DNA of 61,706 nt, filler included, from Basidiobolus ranarum (taxonomy: Eukaryota): the NCBI GenBank assembly GCA_040143965.1. It is 7 parts of 7 records of this genome, joined end to end, with 100 filler letters (N's around TTAATTAATTAA, not from the genome) between each part and the next. Parts side by side here need not be neighbours in the genome. Positions count along the whole stretch, not along the records: positions 44,170 to 52,890 come from JASJQH010007808.1; 6 more parts are not named here. One strand, 5' to 3'. Numbering within the stretch: position 1 is the first letter of the stretch; each line of letters starts with the position of its first letter. The notes below the pieces were generated by a model, which worked only from the letters and a program-made list of their open reading frames with translations, did not search any database and was not told the DNA's origin. A program made the translations under genes and the position numbers. This document shows, one piece after another, positions 1 through 52,990 of this stretch.

Positions 1-1850
1 CTATCAACGCTTCAGTAGGAGATGTTGATCCAAGGACCATGTTATATACGAGATGGTTTTGACAGGACATATCAGTATTATGAGTGACTAATAACTTGGT
101 TGCATGTTTGACGGTAACAGCCAGATTCTTGGCTCTTATATGTTTTGCCAAAGCTATTGAGGCCTTGATATGGCAAGTAGCAGATGTGCAATGGGAATAT
201 GATTAGCCTAGATGTCAGAAATATAATCTTGAGTAATTTACTAAACGTGCTTTTTGATTCTCAATTAATCCCGAGATACGCCATATTTACTACATCGTGT
301 ATAGGCCCTAGATTTCCAGTGAAAAACTTTTTGGAGCAGACAAGACCAAAAATGTATATCTCCATGTCGGAATAGAAAAATGAGGGTGGGGTCACTACAA
401 AATCGATATATTCTCCTCTGGAATTGACCTAGAACTAACTCGAGCTTCAAAAACTTCGGCGAATAGTGCACAATTACCCATATATCCTTACCCATGCATC
501 CAGTAGGAGTTGGATAACAACCATACAAACCACAGCTGTACAATGAATGACGAGGTATGGACATGGATACGGATACGAACACGAACACGAATATGGCTGT
601 AACTGTGTACAAGTGCCGGTGCGGGTGCATATTATGCAAATTTCCTTGCCATAATGACAATAATAATCAAGTATACCTGGTTTATCCGATATCGGGTTTG
701 GGCTACAGAAATAGACTCAATGTAATCAATAGAACTCTATTAGATCGAATAAAAGCTCCGAAACTTAGGCAACATTTTAGTGCAGTATTTCGATTGAGGC
801 GCCGCGATAACTAGGTTGTGGAGGAGTTGCCATGTTAATTTTTAGTAAGTAGCTTGATTTTCCGAGATTCTAGCACTAGTCTATATGAATTTAGATTATG
901 ACTCTCACGTCTCTGGGAGACTAGATTGGCCAACGATCTAGACTTACAAATGAAAAGCCGCTAAGACACATGACCCGTATGCGGTGTATAGAGTTCAAAA
1001 AAAGGTTCAAATGCCATTTGATACATACCTGATGTGTGCTTACTATCGCTCGATGAATTGGGCATTAAGGTGCCATCAAATGCAATAAGATTCAAATCTA
1101 GTCAACCTTCGTTTGCTGGACATCATACCATTTGCTCGGCCTATTTCTTAGCTACAATATTCCGCTTTACGCTTTAGGTTCTCTTAATCTGGGGGGCTCT
1201 AAATTTCTTTCGATCACAACAGTTAAGAGCACTAAATACAGCGTCCAGAACGAAGGCTAATTTTTTAGTCGAAAGTTGGAAATGGCTTGAACCCATCCGG
1301 GTCATATATAACTAACTATAGAATGACCAACAATAGTACGGTAGTTTACATTTAACAACTTCCGTGATTTTATTGATTCGCAAACATTATCAGTCACGTG
1401 GATTCCTGGTTCAAAATAATCATTGAAATGTGTATGTTGTTTATCTTAGTATCGAGCTGACGCAGCATAAAATCACTAAACTAACAAATACTGAAATAAT
1501 AATAATAAGCATAATAATGTTGAGTTCGAAATTTAACTGATAAATATCAACAAATCATTCGGTTTGTTGATCAAAGTTTCGCGAATAGTGCATTCATTCA
1601 CATATAATATATATACAACTTTTTTATTCGTTCCGAGGTAGGTCTGTTTCGCCATAAACGCGACACGCGCACAACACCACAACATCTTTTTCTTTACCAT
1701 AACTGTGTTTACTTTTTCACTTGCACCTTTTTTACCAGCAAGTATTATCAGTAATAGTATTCTCTATACATTACTTGCAAAGATTCTATCTTAAAATAGC
1801 GATATATTTCAAACCAAACCTACTTAAATTGTAATTTTCTTCTATCGAAG

Positions 1851-4800
1851 ATGGTTACCGTTGAAATTCCTCTCGTTAGTATACTTTTTGATTTATTTCT
1901 CTACAAAGCTATTCAATAATTATTGTATATTTATAATAATCACCTTTTGGATATAGCGCCCTTTGCCCGAAGTAGACATTGTCAATGGTGATGGTGAAGT
2001 CGTCTCCTCTAGTGTTAGAAGATCTACACGATCAAGAACCTTAAGAAAGCCCCAAACAACACGTATGTTTACAGTGTATACTTCCTATTTGAATCACATT
2101 AACTTACAGAGAAAATTGTCAACAGAAGAACTTGATTCTTCCGATGAATCTGCTTTTTCGGAACCTGAGTATGTTGCTCGGACCCCAAAACGTAAAGGTC
2201 GTTCAATTGGTTCTACTGGAGCTACCACGCCAAAAGCACCCAGTTCTACCCCCAGACGTGGCAGAAAACCTAAAAATCCGGGAAATGTTGCCGAGTCCAG
2301 ACGACGACCTAAGGCTACACATCGCTATAGAGAACAGTCTTCCACTGGAAGTGTTGACTCCACTCTTTATGGTAATTTAATATATATCTTCACAATTCTA
2401 TTGTTTATCTTGTTAATTGGAATTCGTCTACAGATGCTGTCTTAGTCCATGGTAGTGCGTTGACTACCACCGTATCCGATTGGATCGATTCGTATCAAAC
2501 TGACAACCTGGAAGCTTTGGTTCAACTAATTAACTTTTTAATTAAAGTAAGCGGTGTTTACTTTCAGATTATTGAATTTCAGTATTAGCTAACGCAACAT
2601 AGGCATGCGGATGTCCTGGCGCTATCACCCGGGAAGCCATTGAAAATAACGATGAAATAGTGGAATTGCTTCATGATTTACAAAATGATTTTGACCCGGT
2701 AAGGTTATTTCAATATTTACTGCAATAATATGATAGATTCTAAATCTCTATTATTGTCAATTTAGAACGCGAATACTGAGTATCCGCTCGTATCCAAAAA
2801 CAAACAATTCAAGAAATTTCGTAAAAACTTGATAGAGTTTTTCGATCGCCTTGTTCAACAAGGAAAACATTCTATATTGTACGACGGAATGTTTATGGAA
2901 ACATTAGAATCTTGGGTTATAGCTATGTCCAGGTACTAGAATCTCCAGACTGTTCTATTTTAATTACAATCCCGTTAATCATAATTTCCATTACAGCTCA
3001 TTGTTTCGCCCTTTTCGTCATACAGCCGCTATCATTGCCCTAAACCTAGTCACTTCTTTATGTAATGTTTGTCAAAATATCCAGGACGAGTTAAATGTTG
3101 CCAATAGACAACTTGCTACTGAACAGAAGAAAAGAAGAACAAAGAACGACCGTGAATCACAACTTGCCACTAAAACTGACGAGCTCCACAATAAGAAGAT
3201 AACGTTAGAGTCTTATCTGACTGATTTCTTTGATGGGTATGTCGATAAAATTATATATTTTTAAATCAACTTTGCTGACGCCATTTTCTTTGCAGAGTGT
3301 TTGTACATAGATATCGTGATGTTGATCCTATACTTCGTACTGAATGCGTTAAAGAACTCGGTAATTGGATTTCGAAATACCCTGATCATTTCATGGATGG
3401 AACATACCTTAGATATATTGGTTGGGTCCTTTCAGATAAGGTAATTTAAATATGTCAAAATGATCGTAAGGTATCATGCTAATACTCGCGTTGATAGTCT
3501 GCTAGCACTCGCCTCGAAGCCGTCAAAGCCATGACAAAGTTATATGGATTTGAGAATTTGATAGGAGGTCTTCGAAATTTTACCGAACGCTTCAAACCTA
3601 GAATTTTGGAAATGTCATTAAAGGAAGCAGATGCTTCTGTCAGAACTGCCACTATTGCTCTCATTACTCATATATCTAAACATGGTATGCTTGAGGATGA
3701 GGATCGCGATGCCTTATTCCCTCTTATATTTCAGAGTGAGTCGAAAGTACGACGTGCAATAGCTCCCTTTATAAACCAGTCGCTCTATGATGATATCATC
3801 AATGATGCCATAGCCGAATCTCAATCCTCGTTTAGCTCTGAATCGGAGGTCCGAGAATCACAGCAAAATTGGGTTGCGCTAAAAACGATTGCTAATTTCC
3901 TAGCTAAATTCAAGGATGTCATTTCATCAGAGGGGGAAAGTGTTGATCCCGCTGAAGAGGATGGCAATCCTGATAGAGTGATTGTGGATGGCAAAGCTCT
4001 AGAGCATCAGAGCAGAGTCTATGCTGCTGTCGAAGCACTGTGGGATGAGATGGAGATTCTAAAGAATTGGCAGTGTATGGCAGAATATCTGTCTCAAGAT
4101 CACTCTTCTTCAAACGCAACTAGCAAATCCTCCCTTGATCCTATCTTTAGATTATCGGAGGAAGAAGAAACTATTCTCCTTGAAGTTTTCGTTGAATCCG
4201 TAAAGTTATCGATTACTGGAAAAACTAAACTTGGTCGATTTGGCAGAGAAATTAAGAAAATCGAGATTGACAACGATGCTCGTGACGCTATATCTCGACA
4301 TTTAGTCAGCGCTCTTCCTACACTATTTGCCAAATTTTCGCCAGATGCTAATCGAGCAGCCCAAGTTGTGATGTTGCCCCAACTGATGAATTTAGATATA
4401 TATAACGAACTCCGTATGAACAAAGCTTATGAAGCGCTAATCGATGAATTATCAAAGATCTTTCTTAAGCATACAGATTCTACCGTACTATTCCGGACAT
4501 CTGAGACTTTTAAGCATTTGAGTAGTTTCGAAGGTTATTCATCTGAACAAGTTCTTAAACTTAGAGAAATGGAAGAATCTGTAATTTCGCTTGTTCGAGA
4601 AGAATGCAATCGCTCTGATATATCTACTACTGAGTTGTCAGATGATGAACAGCACATCCTCTCTGCCTCTTTACGCCGTTTAGAGCAACTTATTCGTTTT
4701 ATGGACCTTTCGGAATTGCTTCAAGAGGCGGATGGGGAGAGTCCAATCTACGAACTACTAGGCAAAGTTATCGATCGTAGTAGTATTTTAAGCGAAGCGG

Positions 4801-6314
4801 AAGATCCAGTAAGTGAATTTAAGGTTCCTACGAGACACTTGACTCTACCAAGTATTTAACCTTTTTTGAATATAGATCATTAATACATGTCTGGAAATTC
4901 TTTATCGATTTATTCTTTGGAAATGTTTTTCCGTTTCTAAAGAAAAAAATGCCAGCGAGCAAGTTATCGATGACTTGATTAAAAAGAGAGATTGGGTTGT
5001 CAGTAGGTGTACAAAGTTGATATTAGGCGATCGCAATGCGAACAGAAGTGTTAGACGAATGGTAATTTATTCTCATGTTTTGTATATATACATTTTTTAT
5101 TTACACCATTTTTTTTGTAGGCATTTCTTACTCTTGCCAATCTTCTATGGCTTTTCACTGGGGATCTCACTCATTCCTCCAATGGCGAACACTTTTCGAA
5201 ACTGGCCTTTAGATGCCCTGACCATATTCAAGAACAGCTTACTCGTTTTGTAGAAATTGAAATAGAAAATTGGGAGGACAAGATTTCCCATGAGGAGAGT
5301 AATGAAGATGCTAATGAGGAATCCGAAAATGAGGATGAGGACGTCGACCATAATTCAAAAAGATCTAAATTTGGAGATTCAGATCCTGTTGGAAAGCATT
5401 GCTTTATGGAAGTTATAGGCAACTTCGTTCGAATGCTTATGCTTAATATTTTTGACATCAAACATGCAAGCATTATTCTGCCACATTACAATCGATTTGG
5501 ACCAGTTTACGATGAGGTAATCAAGTCACTAATTGAGGATACCATGCGCGCCCTTCTTGTTCGCACAAGCATGACAAGTACTGTTTTAGGATTGTATCTG
5601 GAATCATTACAGAAGTCATTTGAAATCCAGCTTCGAACAAACTCGGCTAAATTCCCGCGTACCATGTCGTTAGCTCGTCTTTTTAGCAACACCACAAAGA
5701 TCGGAGGATTCTACATTCGCGATATGCTCGAATTTCACAAAAACAGCGTTGTATACATATTCTCGAAAATGGCTGGTTATCAACGAATTGGAAACCAATC
5801 AAATAGAAACGCAATGCTACAATTCTTTAAAGTGATGAAGTACTTCTCCGATGGGTTAAGAGCCAAGGATGTTAGTATGCTACTGAAACACTTGGAAGAT
5901 ACGATGGAGGAAAATTTCTTGGCTGTTCGAGAGGGTGCCAAGGAATGGGAGCCTTATTTTGCATATGTCAAACAGCTTGATAAAAAATCCATTGTCAATC
6001 AATTCGAGGCCGTTGTTGTTGAAAAAGCTCATATATCAGCACCAACTGCCGAGGACGAAGACGAAAGCAATCAAGAAAATCCCGGTGACGTAATGAGCGT
6101 GGATCAAGAAGCAGATACCGCATCGCCAGCAGATGAATCACCAACTCTAGAATTATCCGATAAAGAGCTTACACCAAGTGATGAGATTGAAGATGACAAC
6201 GAAGCATCTGGCGAGAACTCGGGTGTGACGGAATCTCGTGGAGTAAAGCGCACCTTGGATGATGATGAAGAAGAAGATGAAAGTGATGACGCGAAAAGAC
6301 TTCGACTTGAGTAA
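1851..6314 (+). CDS. SCC3: Cohesin subunit SCC3/Psc3/STAG, multi-exon
   Basis: Spliced exons give STAG-domain motifs: RPFRHTAAIIAL, VFVHRYRDVDPILRTECVKELGNWISKYPDHFMDGTYLRYIGWVLSDK and FTERFKPRILEM. There is a basic N-terminal tail and an acidic C-terminal tail. ATG at 1851, TAA at 6312-6314, about 10 GT-AG introns. Confidence 0.93.
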
Positions 6315-8740: not shown

Positions 8741-8840
8741 NNNNNNNNNNNNNNNNNNNNNNNNNNNNNNNNNNNNNNNNNNNNTTAATTAATTAANNNN
8801 NNNNNNNNNNNNNNNNNNNNNNNNNNNNNNNNNNNNNNNN
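8741..8840. other. Artificial contig spacer
   Basis: N-run + TTAATTAATTAA (six-frame stop linker) + N-run, 100 bp. Identical spacers occur at 17579-17678, 26414-26513, 35245-35344, 44070-44169 and 52891-52990. Confidence 0.98.
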
Positions 8841-17480: not shown

Positions 17481-18127
17481 ACCAAAAGGTGAAATCTTTA
17501 TTTCAAACAAAACAATGAAGCCATAACTACTTTTGTAGTTTCTTAACTAATGTATGGAGATCTGGAGTATTTGTATGANNNNNNNNNNNNNNNNNNNNNN
17601 NNNNNNNNNNNNNNNNNNNNNNTTAATTAATTAANNNNNNNNNNNNNNNNNNNNNNNNNNNNNNNNNNNNNNNNNNNNAAGTCACTCAAAGTCTATGGCA
17701 GCAATATATATCTCATCACACATTGAGTACATGGATTGGGTACTAGACGTCTCTCTGCCATAATCACGCAGTGTTTAGTACTGAAGCCAATGGTAGCGGT
17801 ATCTTGCTTTTTAACTCCCTTGAACCAAATTTATGATCGACAAATAATATTATAGACAGCTAATACATTTGATCATGGACTAGCAAATGCCCATTATTGT
17901 ATTCTCAGTCTATTATTTATAACGATTATATAATCCCATGGTTTAGCCCTGGTTCACATTGGTAAACAGGAAGTCTTATGGATAATTTAGGGCCTACTAT
18001 TCGCTGATTGGTTAATTGTTGATGTGAAATGTAAATAGAGCCTTTATGATTAGATTGATTTCGAAAGCTTCGCGCATCATCAGTTACCACCCCTACATCG
18101 ACTTGCTCTAGCTTGCTACTTTTCTAT

Positions 18128-26413: not shown

Positions 26414-26513
26414 NNNNNNNNNNNNNNNNNNNNNNNNNNNNNNNNNNNNNNNNNNNNTTAATTAATTAANNNNNNNNNNNNNNNNNNNNNNNNNNNNNNN
26501 NNNNNNNNNNNNN

Positions 26514-35244: not shown

Positions 35245-35344
35245 NNNNNNNNNNNNNNNNNNNNNNNNNNNNNNNNNNNNNNNNNNNNTTAATTAATTAA
35301 NNNNNNNNNNNNNNNNNNNNNNNNNNNNNNNNNNNNNNNNNNNN

Positions 35345-44069: not shown

Positions 44070-45816
44070 NNNNNNNNNNNNNNNNNNNNNNNNNNNNNNN
44101 NNNNNNNNNNNNNTTAATTAATTAANNNNNNNNNNNNNNNNNNNNNNNNNNNNNNNNNNNNNNNNNNNNAAGAAATAAAATGGCGCGAGTATACAACCTA
44201 ACGAAAATCCATTCAAAAGTAACCGGTAATTTATCCCCCAAAAGCCCTGAATTGTAGGAATACCACGACAATATATCCGTAAAGGCTATAGTTGGGGATG
44301 TTGTCAGTTTACCTGGGTTGCATTTCTCACAAATAATCTCACAAATGATGATATGAAATTGTTCGCTGCCATAGATGCTATGGATATTGGTCACATATCC
44401 TTCGTACTACGTTTATGTCACCAGAAACAAACAGCAAAGAATGGCAACTGCTTGAAGATCGATCGGTAGCTAATAGCGTAGCTTAAATGGGTTTTCGATG
44501 TGGAGATAGTTTGAAGTAGAGAGTACTTGAGTCATGGAGTGAGTCACAATAGCTGGGTATAAATCAGCGTCCGTAGAATCTCTGCGGACATCTTAGCACT
44601 CAGCTAAAGTGGGCGATTTGCAAGTTTCCATGAATTATGATATGGTCGCACCCACCCCCACTCTTATTATGGAAGACTAGTAGAAAGCAATTACTAATCA
44701 TCCGCCAAATCTACCAAAAACCTGTAAGGTAAATTACCTGAAAGTATCATAGAAACTATTATGGTCTGTGAAACATTGATACCGACTTCAGGAGTGGCGA
44801 ATATTTTCGTCAGACGTCATCATAAATCACCATCGATTGAGTGCTTTCGTAACTGCTAAAGGAGTTGATCAAACTACCTTAGGGATGCCAAGTTACTTGC
44901 TTTGGCCAATGCTTGATTTGGTCCTGAGTTCTATTACTTGAACTAGTAAAAGTACTTGTCCCTGGAATACTGAGCCGTAATCGGCCGTGGTTCGGCTTAT
45001 TCGTTTCGGATTGATGACCCCTGGATACCTGTTCATTTATGCTCCAATAGGGATTTCAACTTTTGGTTTGGAACACCTCAAATCAACTTCCCTTGACGAG
45101 CGAACGTGTGTGCGAACCCAAGAGGTCATTGATCAAAGCCCAGGTGGGCGAGAGAGTATTGGCATATTCTATGCGGTCCTTGTAGTCATATAGAATATTA
45201 GTAGATAGCGCCCCGACATCGCCAAGCATCTTGTCTAGGATGAAGTAAAGCATGACTTGAACTCAGTTTTATGCTTTGATGCTATTTCTCCGACTTAACC
45301 CCCCTTCCCTTTCCCCATTAACATTTTCATGCTACAGAAGTAGATCGACTTAAAATTTATCCATGTACTAAGTCTAATCGCTGCCTGTCTGCTCCCCACG
45401 TAGCCGCTCTCATTTTATTTGTTGCATGTTGATTGGTTCTAAAATATATTTGATAAAGCTTACGATTTATAAATTCAGGCTGATTACTAATGCACCCTAG
45501 ATCTCTATCATCGTTTAATACATATAATATATATGAAAGTACTGTGCCATAGGTAAGAATCTAGGGTTACTATTTTGGTAAAAAACAATATTGAGTATGA
45601 TTGTGATCTATTTTTTGAAAACCCGGTTGGTCTTAGTAATTGACATTGGTGGTAGAAAACTAGATATATAGTGGCCCATATCTTTCACCTTTCATCTGTC
45701 CTTAACATTCTCATTACCTTTGATCGGTACATACGCAGTCCTCACACCCCTTGGTTCTCCTTCAATAACTTTTAACACATTGTTTCCTGTACCCTTTTCT
45801 CACTATAATTGACACA

Positions 45817-48424
45817 ATGCCTAACGAACAATTGATGAATTTCCCCAACTCTCGGGCTGAGCAATATACTGGCACACGATCATTCATGCCTACTAAGGAA
45901 GCCATCGTAACCATGAACCTCAAAGTAGAAGATGCCAAGGAGAAACGTCAAGAAATATGGAGAGCTTTTAATGATACTTTCACATTGTATGAAGACCTAT
46001 TCGATTCTATAACTGATAAAGCACACTACATGCGCGCCGACCCGCTCAGACATCCATTGATTTTCTACCTGGGTCACAGCGCTGCCTTTTACATTAACAA
46101 ACTTGTATTAGCCAAGATCCTCAAGTATAATGAACGCATTGATCCAAGTCTAGAATCCCTGGTATCAGTTGGAGTGGACGAAATGTCTTGGTAAGTTTAG
46201 CCTGAGGATCCACATTGTGAAGAAAAATCATTAAGCTTTTTTAATTATATATAGGGATGATCTCCTTTCTGATGACTATCCTTGGCCTGCTTTGGAGAAT
46301 GTACGTACTTTCCGCTCACAAGTTCGAAAATTAATCTCCGAAGTGATCCTTGAAAGACTCCCTTTGAACGACCATACTGTCATCAATTGGGAACATCCAT
46401 TTTGGCCGATCGTACTTGCGATAGAGCATGAACGCATTCATTTGGAGACCTCTTCCGTACTCATACGCCATCTCCCTCTCACGGCCCTTAATCTAAATTA
46501 TAATTCTTTCTTTAAGCAAGATTGTAAAGAATGGGATTCTATCAATCATTCAGAAGCAGATGTTGCATTTGTTCAGGTTCCAGCGGGTGATATCACTATC
46601 GGTCGTCCTATTAGTTCTGATAAGGCACGTTCTAAAGAGCACCTCGAAAATTTTGTTAACATCTATGGTTGGGATAACGAATATGGTCACCGCGCATCAT
46701 CGGTCCAGAGTTTTTTAGCGGGAGAAAAGTTAATCTCCAATGCTGACTTTTATCAATTTGTTCAAGATGGTGGTTACCACAAGGAAGAATACTGGTCTGA
46801 AGAAGGTTGGCATTGGGTCCAATATATCAAACCTGAAACACCTAGATTTTGGATAAAGAAAAGTGATGGTTCATATGTGCTGAGAAATATGCTAGAAGAG
46901 ACATCTACAATGCCTTGGAATTGGCCGGTAGAAACCAATGCTTTAGAAGCGAATGCCTACTGTCGTTGGTATAGTAAAAAATACGGCAAGCTTACTCGGT
47001 TACCCACTGAAGAAGAGTATAACCAAATGCTTCGATACGCCTTAGAACAGGAGCATCAGACTACCGGTTCCAATCCTATCGGACCTGATCATATGTTGAA
47101 TAATTGTAACATTGGTCTCCAAAAATCCACTTCCTCATGCCCAGTTGACAAATTCCGTACGGGGCCATTCTATGACGTTATGGGAAATGTTTGGCAATGG
47201 ACAAGAACTTGCATGTATCCATTTGCTGATTTTGATGTTCATCCGTTATATGATGATTTTACTGCACCCACTTTCGATGACCAGCATAATTTAATCAAAG
47301 GTGGCTCTTGGGCCTCCACTGGTAACGAGGCTACAATCTACTGCCGTTATGCATTCCGTCGTCATTTTTATCAACATGCTGGCTTCCGAGTTATTCAACC
47401 AATAGACCAAGAGAGCATTGGCATGAGTGAATCTAAACAAGAGCCCGACTTTGAGCCCAAAAATATATTCGTTACCGGAAATGGCCAAGAAACTTCTGGA
47501 AACCCATATGAAACTGATGTTCAAGTTAACCGTTATTGTGAAGGACATTACGGACCTCAGCCTCCTTTCCCTGATGTTCAATCTTTCCAAGCAGTTTCTG
47601 CTCGCATATGTGAGGCATTAATGCGTGGTTCTGAATTTGCTGAGTTAGACAATCAAGAGCAAATTCGCGCTTTAGACCTTGGGTGTGCAACTGGTCGATC
47701 CACTTTCGAGATGTCACATTACTTTGACCAGGTGGTAGGTGTAGACTTGTCAGCTAGGTTCATCCAAGTAGGTTATCAACTAGCCCAGCGAGGAAGTATT
47801 CGGTATAGCATGCCAATTGAAGGAGAGATTCACACTCTTCGTGAAGTAGTACTTGGCTCTAAAGACCTTCCATTGGATGGTTCAGATGGACTGAAATTAG
47901 TTGAACAACTCTTTGGCCCTCAGCCAATCGATCAAAGTCCGAATGATTGTAATGCGTTGGCAGATAAAGTGGTATTTCTCCAGGGAGATGCATGCAATCT
48001 GAACGCCACCAACCCAGTGTACTTCAACTTTCATTGTATTTTGGCAGCTAATATCATAGATCGCCTTTACAACCCTATTTCCTTCCTTGAAGCCATTCAT
48101 ACACGAATTGTTCCTGGCGGATTCCTTGTTATCTTATCACCCAACACATGGCTCCCTGATTTCACCCCACAAGAAAATTGGATCGGTGGTAAAAAGGTGG
48201 ATGGTGAAAACGTCACCACACGTGATGGGCTTGAACAAGTATTAAGCCCATGGTTTGATATTGTTCATATCAAGCCACACAATCCAGAATTCAAGGATGT
48301 ATTCGGAGGAAACAGTCCAGACGGAGAACTAGATTCATTCCATGTTCCATTTGTACTCCGTGAAACCCAACGCAAGTACGAATTTATCTTTGCTGAATGT
48401 ACCATCTGGAAAAAACGAGTTTAA
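45817..48424 (+). CDS. ovoA: 5-histidylcysteine sulfoxide synthase / methyltransferase OvoA (ovothiol biosynthesis)
   Basis: Two exons (45817-46190, 46255-48424; 64-nt GT-AG intron) give 847 aa. DinB-like domain: RHPLIFYLGHSAAFYINKL, GVDEMSWDDL, IEHERIHLETSSVLIR. FGE-sulfatase domain: YGWDNEYG, GNVWQWT, YDDFTAPTFDDQHNLIKGGSW, RYAFRRHFYQHAGFR. C-terminal SAM methyltransferase: ALDLGCATGR, GVDLSARFI, FLQGDACNL, FVLRETQRKY. Confidence 0.93.
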
Positions 48425-51400
48425 GCTACGGAGTAATTATTATGTCAACTTTAATGATGTTACCACATCCCCCATGTAAAGAAGAAAACTTATATCAGTG
48501 AGTCAAAACAAGAATAAAAAGCCAATTTAATAACATTACTGCCAGGTGTATGCGCATATACACCAGTATGGGGTAGTCAGGGTACTACGATTGAACCAAT
48601 AAAATTGCTCAGACAATCGTATGTTTGCCATTCTGGGTAGTTGCGAACCCATCATGGCGAGAAAGTCATTATTGGAGAGAAGTTTGAACTTGTTTATGAT
48701 TTGATAGATGTAATCCATGAAGCATATCGTGTTGTGCATCCATTTAATAGAGAAGTTTCGAAGATGCTTAATTTTTCTTGATTTTTTAAGCAATTATCTA
48801 GGAATGTCGTAGAACTTCACCATATGTAGTCAAAGTACATTGAATACTGGTTTGCAGAAGCTCTACTGCATTCTGGCTTTTCCTTATCAACCTGGTGTAT
48901 GACACATCTGCCTCTAATTCTATCCCGATAAGGAGTAGTGGTTGAATTTTAGACTTTTCTTCAGAATAAATGGGTTGGGTTATCATTCACTTAGAACTAT
49001 CATTCTGTAGCTTGAATGCTTAACATCCCTTATATTTGTTGATATTCAGCATAATAAACTTCTTTCATATCATGCTATTATATTTAACGTACAGAGGGGC
49101 TACATGCAACGTGATATCCCCATCAAAGTCAGGTAAGCTGTGGAAGTTGGCCAAGTGTAAGCCTTGGAACTGTCGCAAAGGGAGAGAATATGCTAGGCGC
49201 ATATCATGTACATAGGAAACATTTCTCTTGGTGAAATTCCCCATCAAGCTGAATTTTCTTATAAAGCTGGATAATGATTAACTGATGGTAGTGCCATCTG
49301 ATGGAATTCACTGAAAGACCTATGTGTTGAATATTGATACTGATCCAATTGATGAATACATCAGTCATCTGTTGTTTATACAGGTGGATATACTAAATCT
49401 GATTGATGATATGCACTAGGTATAGGTGTGGATTCCAACACATATTTAACAGGTAAAAGGATGACAATAGAGTTTAGATATTATCTTCATTAAGAATGTA
49501 TTCAAGTAGCACAACAAGAAGAACTTTTTCTACCCTTATAACGTTCAGCAGTGAATATTGCAAAACTAACCTGACACCAGATTGCACTGAGTTAAGGAAG
49601 AAGATAATAAGCAACTGACATTATAGTTATGTAAGCTGTGTAGGTAATCAAAGTACCCTTAGATGGATCAACAGATAGGATATTCCAGTCAGATTCAGTC
49701 ATTTTTGTGATCAGCTGTACATAAGCAATTACAGTTATTTAGTGAGTATCTCCCTGAAGAGCCGTTTGTTGGTCTTACGGAGTAAACAGTGTCCAGAGAA
49801 GTTTCAGCCATTACCCTACCCTGAGACAATTGGCGACTAACCTTTATTAGAATCCAAGGTCAATTATGGACGTAGACTGTGCTTCGAGGTTAAAAGTGCC
49901 CCTGCTTTAGGCTGAACAGCCCAAACATCTCGTTTCATAAAAAGAAGGATCCTTCTTTCGTATTATGAAGTTCCGAATTAGCTACCTCTACCTCGCGTAA
50001 CACCTTGGAATACCTGATTTGAAACGTACCATATACAATATCCACTGATCGAATGCTCGTTGATAGGGGATTCAGGAAACCCGATGATCTAAAGTTTGTT
50101 GAATACACTCTACCAGGAAGCAAACCAGATGGATACATCAAGCGTAGCAGGAACCAATGCATTTGTATAATGCATCTGTGTGGACCGGATCCTAGTATTT
50201 CCGGATTGGTTAACTCAGACTGCACAGACGCCATCCAAAGAGATCATTAGGTCTGCAAGTGTACACATTCAAAGATTAAAGAGGGTGTCTCAATATCACA
50301 GGGATTACTAGCTTGTTCACGGGATTTGCTCAGAAATTATATTGGCGACACCTTGTTAATACTGATAAGGGACACTTGCATGCACTGTATTTCATCCATT
50401 AAGATGGGTTTTTGATATGTTCCATTTCGGACATGACTCCAGAACATCGGCATATTTGTAGCAGTATGCACAATACCCATTGGAGGATGTAAATTACTCA
50501 ATCGAATTAAGTGCACTATAGCTACGTATATATTCATGCATTTACATTCACAGAAGCGCTGGCTCTCATTCGACCAATCTTCGATTCTGCAACGATATTC
50601 AAGTCATATTGAACCGTATCCAATCACTTTCATTGTTCAAGATTTTCAAGTGTTTATTGATTATTCCCAAGGGGCAGGTTCGTATCAAGTGCTATGCCTA
50701 TTTCGGCTTAGCTCCTATTCTAGGCAAGAAGATGGCAACACTTAACATCCAGTGAGGGCTTGACTAATTAATGTATTGTGGTAACCCTTCAGCCTGGCTA
50801 TTGGCACCAATCTGTTAAGTTTAGACTCAATTGGAAGGTGACAAGGCTATCAAATAATCGCCATATGACAATGAGTCTCTAACGTTCTCCTTCCGAGAAT
50901 ACGCCGCAATGATCCAAATCCCGTGTAACTCTGAGTGCTTAAGCGGCAGTGCTTCAACTAAACCTGGTCTCTTCTTAAGGCCCAGAAACGAAAGCAGGAA
51001 TCTGCAGTGATATTGAAATCGGTCGGTGAGGTGATATTCATTCGATAAACGCTACTCAACATCACGCTATGCAACGGTCTACCTACTGATCAAGATCTTA
51101 ATCCTATTGTTGAAACCTCCCTCACCTTGTCGCACATTGAAGTTATGATAATTCGAAGATAGGATAAAATTTAGTAAGCATTCATGTGAACGTGCAGGGG
51201 TAGAGATTCCACTACTCGTTCTGTGTCTCAAAGTGTAACATGTGCAATTGACTGGCATGCTAAAGACTTTCACTGGCATTAGGTGAGGGTGAGTTAGACC
51301 GCCATTACCATAATAACACTTAATCGGGTGAATTGAATATCTAGCCTTTGTATCAGGTTTAATACTGGACTCAGAATGCAGGATTGTATACTAAAGATCA

Positions 51401-52613
51401 CTAGTCCATAGAGAGATTGGTCTCATCTCCATAGGCCCCCATTCGCTAACTTTCCTTTGAGCCTTCGTAACTTGGTTTGCTTCATAGCTTCTCGAATGAG
51501 CCTGTGTTGATAAATAAACTAGGGTTGGATCCAAATGTACTAATATCTTAGGCGTAATCCGCAAGGGTTATAAGTACATATTACTATTCTTATCTATGAA
51601 AGGATCACCCGCATGAGTGCTAATGCGGGCTATTTTTCAACCTCCTGGCAATATAGACCTAGATTGTGGTGCTTTACACCTCACTAAACCATAAGCGGTT
51701 AGTTTCATCTATTCCATTAATCGTCAATGAAGTGTGGTCAATATTGAACTGTGTTGGTGAAACGTTCTCATATGACCATGGCATCGCAGTGATTGTAGCT
51801 TTGGCGAGTGTGTGCGTAGAAAGCCCTTGTCTCTCTTAACTGATCTCCAGCAGGTAATGTAACTTTAAATTGCTTCACATAAAGTGAGACATCCCATCAG
51901 TCTTCAAAACAACACCCAATCATGCCCTTGAGTTGAGAGACTGAGGATACTATCGCATTCCTAAGATCGCCTTAATAGTTTGAATGGGGAATCTTGAGAA
52001 AGTAGCCAAGTGCGTACAACATGAGTGGAGTGGTAGTATTTTAGATTTTTCGGAAGTAACTTGCGTATCACATCTGGTTGTGTACCAAATTCACTACCAC
52101 TGTACATGCCAGCCACCTCACCTGGACACTTCAGAATCCCAGTCGAAAGATTTGCTGTGATACGATGATACTGAAATAGCAGCATTTTGCTCTTTTCGGT
52201 CAAATTTATTGTAGCATCATTCTCTCGTCCCATTCGCTAGCTGATAGTTACAAACATGCGGAACACTACACCTATTTTCTATATAATGGCAAATTCGTAC
52301 ACCTTGGAACTAGATTACTCGTCCTCAATCTCTAGATTTCGTCCGTCTTTCATGAAATTCCCTCTTCTTGTTGCCTCCCTCGGATTGTATTTTTAAACCC
52401 AAACCTTTCACTGTCCCATTTTATATCTATCATAAGTCTAATTGATTCAATTCGCTTATTATCTCTTGGAGTCATTTATCTTCTCGTTCCTTCGACAGAA
52501 ACATTACACTATCTATATCTAGGGTCGGTCCATACGCTTAGCTTATGCAACAATAAGCCACTCCTTCCAATATTTATTACTTACTGCTTAATTCGATCCC
52601 TTTTCGCTTTGAC

Positions 52614-52890
52614 ATGACTGAAAAGGCTAGACAAGACGTGTCAAGGCTCGATATAGCCTTTCTTTTGAATACCTCAGACGATGTTACAGATCAAGGTATA
52701 TCGGTTACAATAGGATGCTCTAGTACTCTGCTCACTGGAAGAGATGGCTCAGCCTCACGAGACCCCGATGACGCACAGGATTATGAGCAAGTGTTGAGAT
52801 TGCCAAGTCAATCCGTATCTACAGACAGCTCACCCTCTTCATCCGATCCTGCATGCGATTCAAATAAAAGACACCAATGCTCACTGTGCT
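52614..52890 (+). CDS. Probable C2H2 zinc-finger transcription factor, 5' fragment
   Basis: N-terminal LDIAFLLN motif and Ser-rich linker, ending KRHQCSLC at the contig edge. Confidence 0.55.
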
Positions 52891-52990
52891 NNNNNNNNNN
52901 NNNNNNNNNNNNNNNNNNNNNNNNNNNNNNNNNNTTAATTAATTAANNNNNNNNNNNNNNNNNNNNNNNNNNNNNNNNNNNNNNNNNNNN

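Follow-up and report, generated by a model that had tools for sequence, protein, structure and literature searches.

The OvoA Locus

We examined a stretch of 61,706 nucleotides (the window), deposited under Basidiobolus ranarum (assembly GCA_040143965.1), and identified in it a complete gene for OvoA, the enzyme that starts the synthesis of the antioxidant ovothiol. The gene is located in the chunk 44170..52890, which comes from record JASJQH010007808.1, and consists of two exons separated by one short spliceosomal intron. It encodes a sulfoxide synthase followed by an S-adenosylmethionine (SAM)-dependent methyltransferase, with the following parts:

45817..48424, + strand: OvoA gene, two exons; spliced coding sequence (CDS) of 2544 nt, 847 aa, 0 internal stops
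45817..46190, + strand: exon 1, 374 nt; residues 1-124 and two bases of the Trp125 codon, including R78, Y84 and H87
46191..46254, + strand: spliceosomal intron, 64 nt, GTAAGT...TATAG, phase 2 inside Trp125
46255..48424, + strand: exon 2; last base of Trp125, residues 126-847, TAA stop at 48422..48424
45817..47395, + strand: sulfoxide-synthase half (DinB_2-like plus FGE-sulfatase fold), residues 1 to ~505, with the intron within the span
46075..46077, 46427..46429 and 46439..46441, + strand: iron ligands H87, H183 and H187, mapped on PDB entry 8KHQ
47249..47251, + strand: catalytic tyrosine Y457 in HPLYDDF, mapped on 8KHQ
47498..48421, + strand: C-terminal SAM-dependent methyltransferase half, residues ~540-847, motif I (ALDLGCATGRS) intact
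47855..47953, + strand: clade-specific insert 1, 33 residues, GSKDLPLDGSDG...NDCN, unmatched in 8KHQ
48275..48337, + strand: clade-specific insert 2, 21 residues, PHNPEFKDVF...GELDS, before the C-terminal strand

The start codon (ATG at 45817) is preceded by an in-frame TAA at 45766. The intron (28% GC, with a length not divisible by 3) splits the Trp codon (TG/G) of GVDEMSW/DDL, and an unspliced reading of the gene meets a stop at codon 125. Two outside references confirm the splice, since both are matched seamlessly across the exon join: exon 1 corresponds to positions 2-93 and exon 2 to positions 95-444 of the NCBIfam ovoA_Nterm profile, and in PDB 8KHQ exon 1 aligns with residues 16-106 and exon 2 from residue 108 onwards. 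A preliminary description of this DNA, made from the sequence alone, had read here an intact 847-aa protein with a GT-AG intron in GVDEMSW/DDL and the histidine motifs LGH and HERIH; the re-read gene model bears this out, with LGH at residues 85-87 and HERIH at residues 183-187. The same description listed a RYAFRRHF motif, which is indeed present (residues 489-496), but alignment with a bacterial OvoA of solved structure (OvoATh2, see below) places the catalytic tyrosine outside it, at Y457 in HPLYDDF.

Family Assignment and Active Site

Both halves of the protein passed the models specific to OvoA: exon 2 alone scored 433.9 bits with TIGR04344 (ovoA_Nterm; cut-off 400), exon 1 contributing 103.2 bits, and TIGR04345 (ovoA_Cterm) was matched with 229.1 bits (cut-off 170) on the same polypeptide as the synthase half. 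The models of related enzymes stayed far below their cut-offs (EgtB model TIGR03440, 132.8 bits against 360; SenA model, 134.5 bits against 420). Pfam found the FGE-sulfatase domain (PF03781, 100.5 bits) and matches to Methyltransf_31/23/11/25 in the C-terminal half, which also matches the PDB entries of OvsM (9BXH) and OvoM (9BXL); an EgtD-type N-terminal methyltransferase (Methyltransf_33) was not found by Pfam on exon 1, on exon 2 or on the related proteins P0001-P0003 introduced below. DinB_2 did not score on either exon piece alone, because this domain spans the intron, and on full-length relatives it scores near its cut-off of 24.8 (24.0 bits in P0001 and 25.1 bits in P0002). The best match among solved structures is the full-length OvoA of Hydrogenimonas thermophila (OvoATh2, PDB 8KHQ; E = 6.4e-135), and the OvsA structures 8UX5 and 8U41 reach only ~5e-11. 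An identity as EgtB, Egt1, SenA or OvsA is ruled out by these model and structure scores, and the gene was thus correctly described from the outset as OvoA and not EgtB/Egt1.

In OvoATh2, H71, H162 and H166 are the metal ligands, Y406 lies on the oxygen-site water, R62, Y68 and the backbone of V102 are on the cysteine, and F409 and T413 are near the histidine (PMC10696552). All nine of these residues are identical in the window protein, where, in the alignment with 8KHQ, they correspond to H87, H183, H187, Y457, R78, Y84, V120, F460 and T464, respectively; for seven of the nine (all but F460 and T464) the codons were re-read from the DNA.

Host Genome and Relatives in Basidiobolus

A homology search scored 8000 matches, 7972 of them with E <= 0.001; statements about matches refer to the best 120 of these 7972 unless otherwise stated. 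Basidiobolus meristosporus CBS 931.73 supplies the two best of them, K493DRAFT_48442 (P0001, 846 aa) and K493DRAFT_314731 (P0002, 833 aa), which over exon 2 are 85% and 80% identical to the window protein; the two copies are on scaffolds of 98 kb and 148 kb. They are of the same length class as the window protein and have the same inserts and the same termini; the 15% amino-acid divergence and the lower GC of the window CDS point to a species distinct from B. meristosporus. Both carry automatic names only, one UniRef name beginning with "5-histidyl...". The window gene is the orthologue of P0001 and not of P0002 (support 100/98 in the careful tree described below), so the duplication that produced P0001 and P0002 took place before the window organism and B. 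meristosporus separated, and a second OvoA copy may be present elsewhere in this genome. In the ESM Atlas, P0001 falls in large clusters only, nearly all of them mainly bacterial; one is mainly eukaryotic, with diatoms as the commonest taxon.

The composition of the gene is that of its host: its GC (0.424) and its GC at third codon positions (GC3, 0.365) are within the range of seven other open reading frames (ORFs) of the window (GC 0.41-0.46, GC3 0.34-0.43), and its relative synonymous codon usage correlates with that of the pooled seven at 0.72, these ORFs correlating among themselves at 0.20-0.78. Among 14 tested ORFs from other chunks, five had Pfam matches, including cohesin SCC3 and DUF7137, and the other chunks also contain major facilitator superfamily (MFS) transporters with short GT..AG introns; these genes indicate a eukaryotic setting. 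The cohesin gene is a multi-exon SCC3/SA gene at 3498-6314 (+ strand; HEAT_SCC3-SA, 128 bits; SCD domain), and the next long ORF in its region, 5121-6314, has no Pfam match.

Could the stretch be something other than fungal DNA, namely a contaminant from another eukaryote or from a bacterium? The chunk with OvoA offers no neighbor that would anchor it to the host, since none of its 43 flanking ORFs (at least 45 aa, outside OvoA, in 44170..52890) reaches a Pfam cut-off. A bacterial source is excluded by the spliceosomal intron, however; an independently sequenced Basidiobolus genome has two orthologues on its 98-kb and 148-kb scaffolds; and composition and codon usage are as in the other chunks. 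Contamination is therefore very unlikely, and the gene is most likely, judging from its closest proteins in B. meristosporus and from the composition and codon usage it shares with the other window ORFs, a native gene of a Basidiobolus-like fungus. The proposal, made from the sequence alone, of a fungal host, with the intron speaking against bacterial contamination, fits the two best matches.

A Clade of Long OvoA Proteins with a Shared Intron

After the Basidiobolus pair, the listed matches continue with four long proteins (P0003-P0006; 56-41% identity), and below these first six comes a plateau of bacterial OvoAs of ~700 aa with 42-44% identity. Both inserts of the methyltransferase half are present in all eight aligned rows of long proteins (the window protein, P0001-P0006 and a further long protein, P0121) and in none of four bacterial-type proteins of ~700-767 aa. 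We also scanned metagenome contigs with very general patterns: among the best 80 of 550 confirmed matches, two are long forms, on contigs L001 (OvoA at 1021-3567) and L005 (OvoA at 382-2771), while the other 78 are, by their match lengths of ~1.8 kb, short forms. Both inserts are found in L001 and L005 as well, whose proteins are 93% identical to each other. A reciprocal search with L001 (translated with table 6) returned P0003, the two Basidiobolus proteins, P0005 and P0004 as best matches, with bacteria later.

L001 and L005 both have a 78-nt intron (GTAAGT...TATAG) that interrupts the same Trp codon as the intron of the window gene, with an identical phase. A reading of this 78-nt block as a translated insert is ruled out by its ends and by an in-frame TGA in L005. 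The exons contain in-frame TAA/TAG codons (10 in L001 and 13 in L005) and no in-frame TGA, and the L001 gene terminates with TGA; one of the TAA/TAG codons is at the family-invariant Gln of RRHF(Y/F)QHAGFR, and others are at positions where relatives have Gln. L001 and L005 therefore come from a eukaryote that reads TAA and TAG as glutamine, unlike the window organism, whose OvoA uses TAA as its stop. A pseudogene reading of L001/L005 was rejected, since all exonic in-frame stops are TAA or TAG, one of them at the invariant Gln, and L001 ends with TGA. Codes with UAR reassigned to glutamine are reported in PMC5304391 for ciliates, oxymonads, ulvophytes and the aphelid Amoeboaphelidium, the last being the one fungus-related lineage for which TAA/TAG is reported as Gln.

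At 1-387 (+ strand), contig L001 also carries the 3′ terminus of a gene encoding a kynureninase-like enzyme dependent on pyridoxal 5′-phosphate (PLP) (KYNU_C 31.7 bits, cut-off 27; table 6), ~630 bp upstream of its OvoA and on the same strand. This enzyme could be a candidate lyase or its position a coincidence; OvoB, in comparison, has a class I/II aminotransferase fold, unlike the kynureninase-like enzyme.

Phylogeny and Origin

From 150 cluster representatives, 65 that cover both domains were kept (85 partial or single-domain ones were dropped), and 14 hand-picked bacterial matches were added. Trees were built with FastTree (86 rows), with quick IQ-TREE runs under a mixture model (47 and 39 rows), and with a careful IQ-TREE run (30 rows); Hydra contributes the only named metazoan OvoA, and the set includes neither choanoflagellate nor chytrid OvoA. 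The three kinds of tree agree, and the long clades recur at 47 and 39 rows. In the careful tree (ultrafast bootstrap, UFBoot / SH-aLRT, a Shimodaira-Hasegawa-like approximate likelihood-ratio test) the window protein groups with P0001 (100/98) and then with P0002 (100/100); adding P0003-P0005, L001 and L005 gives an eight-row clade (100/98), and adding P0006 and P0121 a ten-row clade (95/97). L001 and L005 branch outside the group formed by Basidiobolus and P0003-P0005. The sister of the ten-row clade is a pair of short forms without inserts, P0126 (717 aa) and P0147 (767 aa; named "MAG: ... [Bdellovibrio sp.]", a metagenome-assembled genome), with an SH-aLRT of 99 in the 39-row tree; the wider group including these bacterial-type sisters has 95/96 in the careful tree. 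Deeper nodes have support below 80 in the careful and in the 39-row IQ-TREE trees.

The protist-type OvoAs (Hydra vulgaris, Amoebophrya, Dracoamoeba, the diplonemid Namystynia, and relatives) form a clade of their own when fully sampled (39 rows), on the same side of the deepest split (support 100) as the window protein. When they are forced together with the long clade (17 rows), the cost is 3.7 log-likelihood units (lnL), with a p-value of 0.418 in the approximately unbiased test (p-AU); a single eukaryotic OvoA lineage is thus not rejected. The other half of the tree, across the same split, contains Cyanophora and bacterial OvoAs of ~800 aa. The named relatives of P0141 in the homology search are ~800-aa bacterial OvoAs (of Competibacter, Contendobacter, Zoogloea, and cyanobacteria), so that the Cyanophora-containing half is not purely eukaryotic. 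Two relatives of P0141 (P0315 and P0361) are bacterial OvoAs of ~800 aa of the Competibacter/Zoogloea type fused to PF01594, for a total of 1237-1249 aa.

The preliminary description had considered, besides ancestral retention, a horizontal transfer with the intron gained later. As an event in this fungus, such a history is not supported by the shared intron, which is also found in a relative that is only 44% identical, uses another genetic code, and branches outside Basidiobolus. A recent transfer from a gut or soil bacterium, with the intron gained afterwards in Basidiobolus, would accord with the bacterial plateau that fills the listed matches below the first six, with the presence of a single intron in the window gene, and with the commonness of transfer candidates in Basidiobolus, whose median intron number is reported as 0 against 2 for fungal genes (PMC7466969). 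But bacterial identity does not exceed 44% among the 120 listed full-length matches and reaches a maximum of 46-47% among the 150 cluster representatives (full-length); five eukaryote-like long forms with both inserts stand between Basidiobolus and the bacteria; codon usage is host-like; and P0001 and P0002 had already arisen by duplication when the window organism and B. meristosporus separated. The distance to bacteria, the intermediate long relatives, the shared intron and the native codon usage together bring recent transfer with later intron gain close to exclusion, and we regard it as unlikely in the extreme.

A much older transfer, from a bacterium to the ancestor of the whole long-OvoA clade, with inserts and intron added later, is a serious contender, to which we would give somewhat less than even odds; it competes over the origin of the gene and not over its function. 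The long clade is sister to the insert-less P0126 and P0147 (the latter from the Bdellovibrio MAG), lies inside a radiation of ~700-aa bacterial OvoAs, and is separated from the Cyanophora-containing half by the deepest split, and 806 candidates for bacterial transfer are reported in Basidiobolus (PMC7466969). Against this, joining the long clade with the protist-type OvoAs is cheap by the test above, the deeper nodes are those with support below 80, P0147 is on a long branch (1.5-1.9), and the direction between the clade and the two short forms is unreadable from an unrooted neighborhood.

An alternative that we consider rather improbable is that the long clade is a lineage of the fungal stem (Holomycota). 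The L001/L005 organism would then be aphelid-like and the intron inherited; ovothiol synthesis would be an ancestral fungal trait that survives in Basidiobolus and in a few uncultured lineages but disappeared from Dikarya, with ergothioneine taking its place; and Basidiobolus would become the first fungus shown to make ovothiol.

Predicted Function and Overall Reading

The function of the window protein is most likely the known OvoA chemistry, as judged from its domains and active-site residues. Once expressed, the N-terminal half would bind Fe(II) through H87, H183 and H187, together with L-cysteine (through R78, Y84 and the backbone of V120) and L-histidine; with O2 and the participation of Y457, it would form the C5-S bond of 5-histidylcysteine sulfoxide. 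A PLP-dependent C-S lyase, presumably encoded elsewhere in the genome, would release 5-thiohistidine, and the C-terminal SAM methyltransferase half would methylate an imidazole nitrogen to give ovothiol A.

An OvoA-like enzyme could also have another product in vivo, through sulfurization of hercynine, formation of a different 5-thiohistidine derivative, or mainly cysteine dioxygenation. Hercynine is commonly made by fungi (PMC9103826), the two methyltransferase inserts may have an effect of their own, and no lyase was seen among the 43 flanking ORFs. In addition, OvoATh2 has ergothioneine-sulfoxide-synthase (Egt1-like) and cysteine-dioxygenase activities in vitro (PMC10696552), which makes the in-vivo product of the window OvoA less than certain. 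These points are countered by the identity of all the Cys- and His-binding residues of OvoATh2 in the window protein, by the OvoA-type C-terminal model (229 bits against a cut-off of 170), and by scores far below the EgtB and SenA cut-offs, so that we consider a different product unlikely.

Taken together, we read the locus, with a probability of about 0.72, as an intact, native nuclear gene of a Basidiobolus-type zygomycete fungus that encodes a predicted bifunctional OvoA; on this reading it is no recent bacterial import. It belongs to a small eukaryotic clade of long OvoAs marked by the two methyltransferase inserts, and its single intron is also present in a member that branches deep in this clade. 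Besides the side activities of OvoATh2, three observations weigh against this reading. First, the predicted proteins P0003-P0006 and P0121 read through the intron site, either because the intron was lost, or because their contigs are transcripts, or because an intron was gained twice at one site; the window intron may nevertheless be ancestral in the long clade. Second, the fungal placement comes from the best matches of OvoA itself, the genes in other chunks being identified as eukaryotic only. Third, the GC of the OvoA CDS (0.42) is below the mean gene GC of B. meristosporus (0.4865; PMC7466969).

Comparison with Known Systems

The window protein shares with bacterial OvoAs (Erwinia tasmaniensis OvoA; OvoATh2, 8KHQ) the same three-part architecture, the three-histidine iron site, the catalytic tyrosine and the residues that bind cysteine and histidine. 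It differs from them in being longer (847 aa versus 728 aa, with ~30 extra N-terminal residues and a longer inter-domain linker), in the inserts of 33 and 21 residues, in its spliceosomal intron, and in that an adjacent OvoB was not found among the 43 flanking ORFs. The protist-type long OvoAs, for example those of Hydra vulgaris (LOC100215679), Amoebophrya, Dracoamoeba and Namystynia, are larger still (1370-1929 aa) and carry N-terminal extensions of ~420-710 residues, which Pfam does not match at E <= 1e-5 (P0189, P0200 and P0259). With Egt1/EgtB the window protein shares the DinB_2 plus FGE-sulfatase fold and the non-haem iron chemistry (PDB 4X8B, E = 1.3e-13); its methyltransferase, however, is C-terminal and of the OvoA/OvoM type, and the N-terminal EgtD-type domain is absent.

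Published accounts assign ovothiol to marine invertebrates, to protists and to bacteria, and give ergothioneine as the fungal compound (PMC8433421, PMC9890322, PMC9103826); Castellano et al. (2016) nevertheless mention that OvoA was found by in-silico work in fungi too (PMC4768315). We found no literature linking Basidiobolus or chytrids with ovothiol, and none on P0001 or P0002; the main texts of Tabima et al. (2020) and Ciach et al. (2024) do not mention a sulfoxide synthase, although their supplements may list one. The presence of OvoA in a fungus, presented in the preliminary description as unexpected, is therefore not novel in itself: two copies are already in the public B. meristosporus CBS 931.73 proteome, and fungal OvoA is mentioned in print (PMC4768315). 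The window OvoA adds one more member to a known family that was already machine-annotated in this genus, and the value of the finding is limited accordingly. What is new here is the definition of a long, insert-bearing clade of eukaryotic OvoAs, its shared intron, and a member with a reassigned code.

Together, the common intron and the two inserts mark out a eukaryotic OvoA sub-family, a description of which we did not find in the literature, and this sub-family limits the possible timing and manner of the gene's arrival or survival in this part of the tree. An intact, native OvoA in a culturable, gut-associated zygomycete also makes it possible to ask directly whether ovothiol is made by any fungus, and to test which lyase finishes the pathway in eukaryotes, most of which are without OvoB.

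Layout of the Window and Surroundings of the Gene

Seven chunks of ~8.74 kb each, which are perhaps not adjacent in the genome, make up the window; they are joined by spacers (44 N + TTAATTAATTAA + 44 N) at the following positions:

8741-8840: spacer
17579-17678: spacer
26414-26513: spacer
35245-35344: spacer
44070-44169: spacer
52891-52990: spacer

The "8.7-kb contig" on which OvoA had been described is thus a sampling chunk, one of seven, whose length is uninformative on the size of the contig. A Pfam search of the 43 flanking ORFs did not find an OvoB-like lyase within 1.6 kb upstream or 4.5 kb downstream of OvoA, in agreement with the earlier observation that none is visible nearby. The absence of a lyase beside OvoA is not unusual: in metazoans except Hydrozoa, Brancaccio et al. 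report that they did not find an OvoB-like sequence (PMC8433421).

Apart from OvoA, the chunk is gene-poor. The ~4 kb on the 3′ side of OvoA (48425-52556) contain neither a long ORF nor an ORF with a Pfam match. An ORF from ~52617 (MTEKARQ... to ...KRHQCSLC) reaches the end of the chunk and perhaps encodes the first part of a zinc-finger protein.

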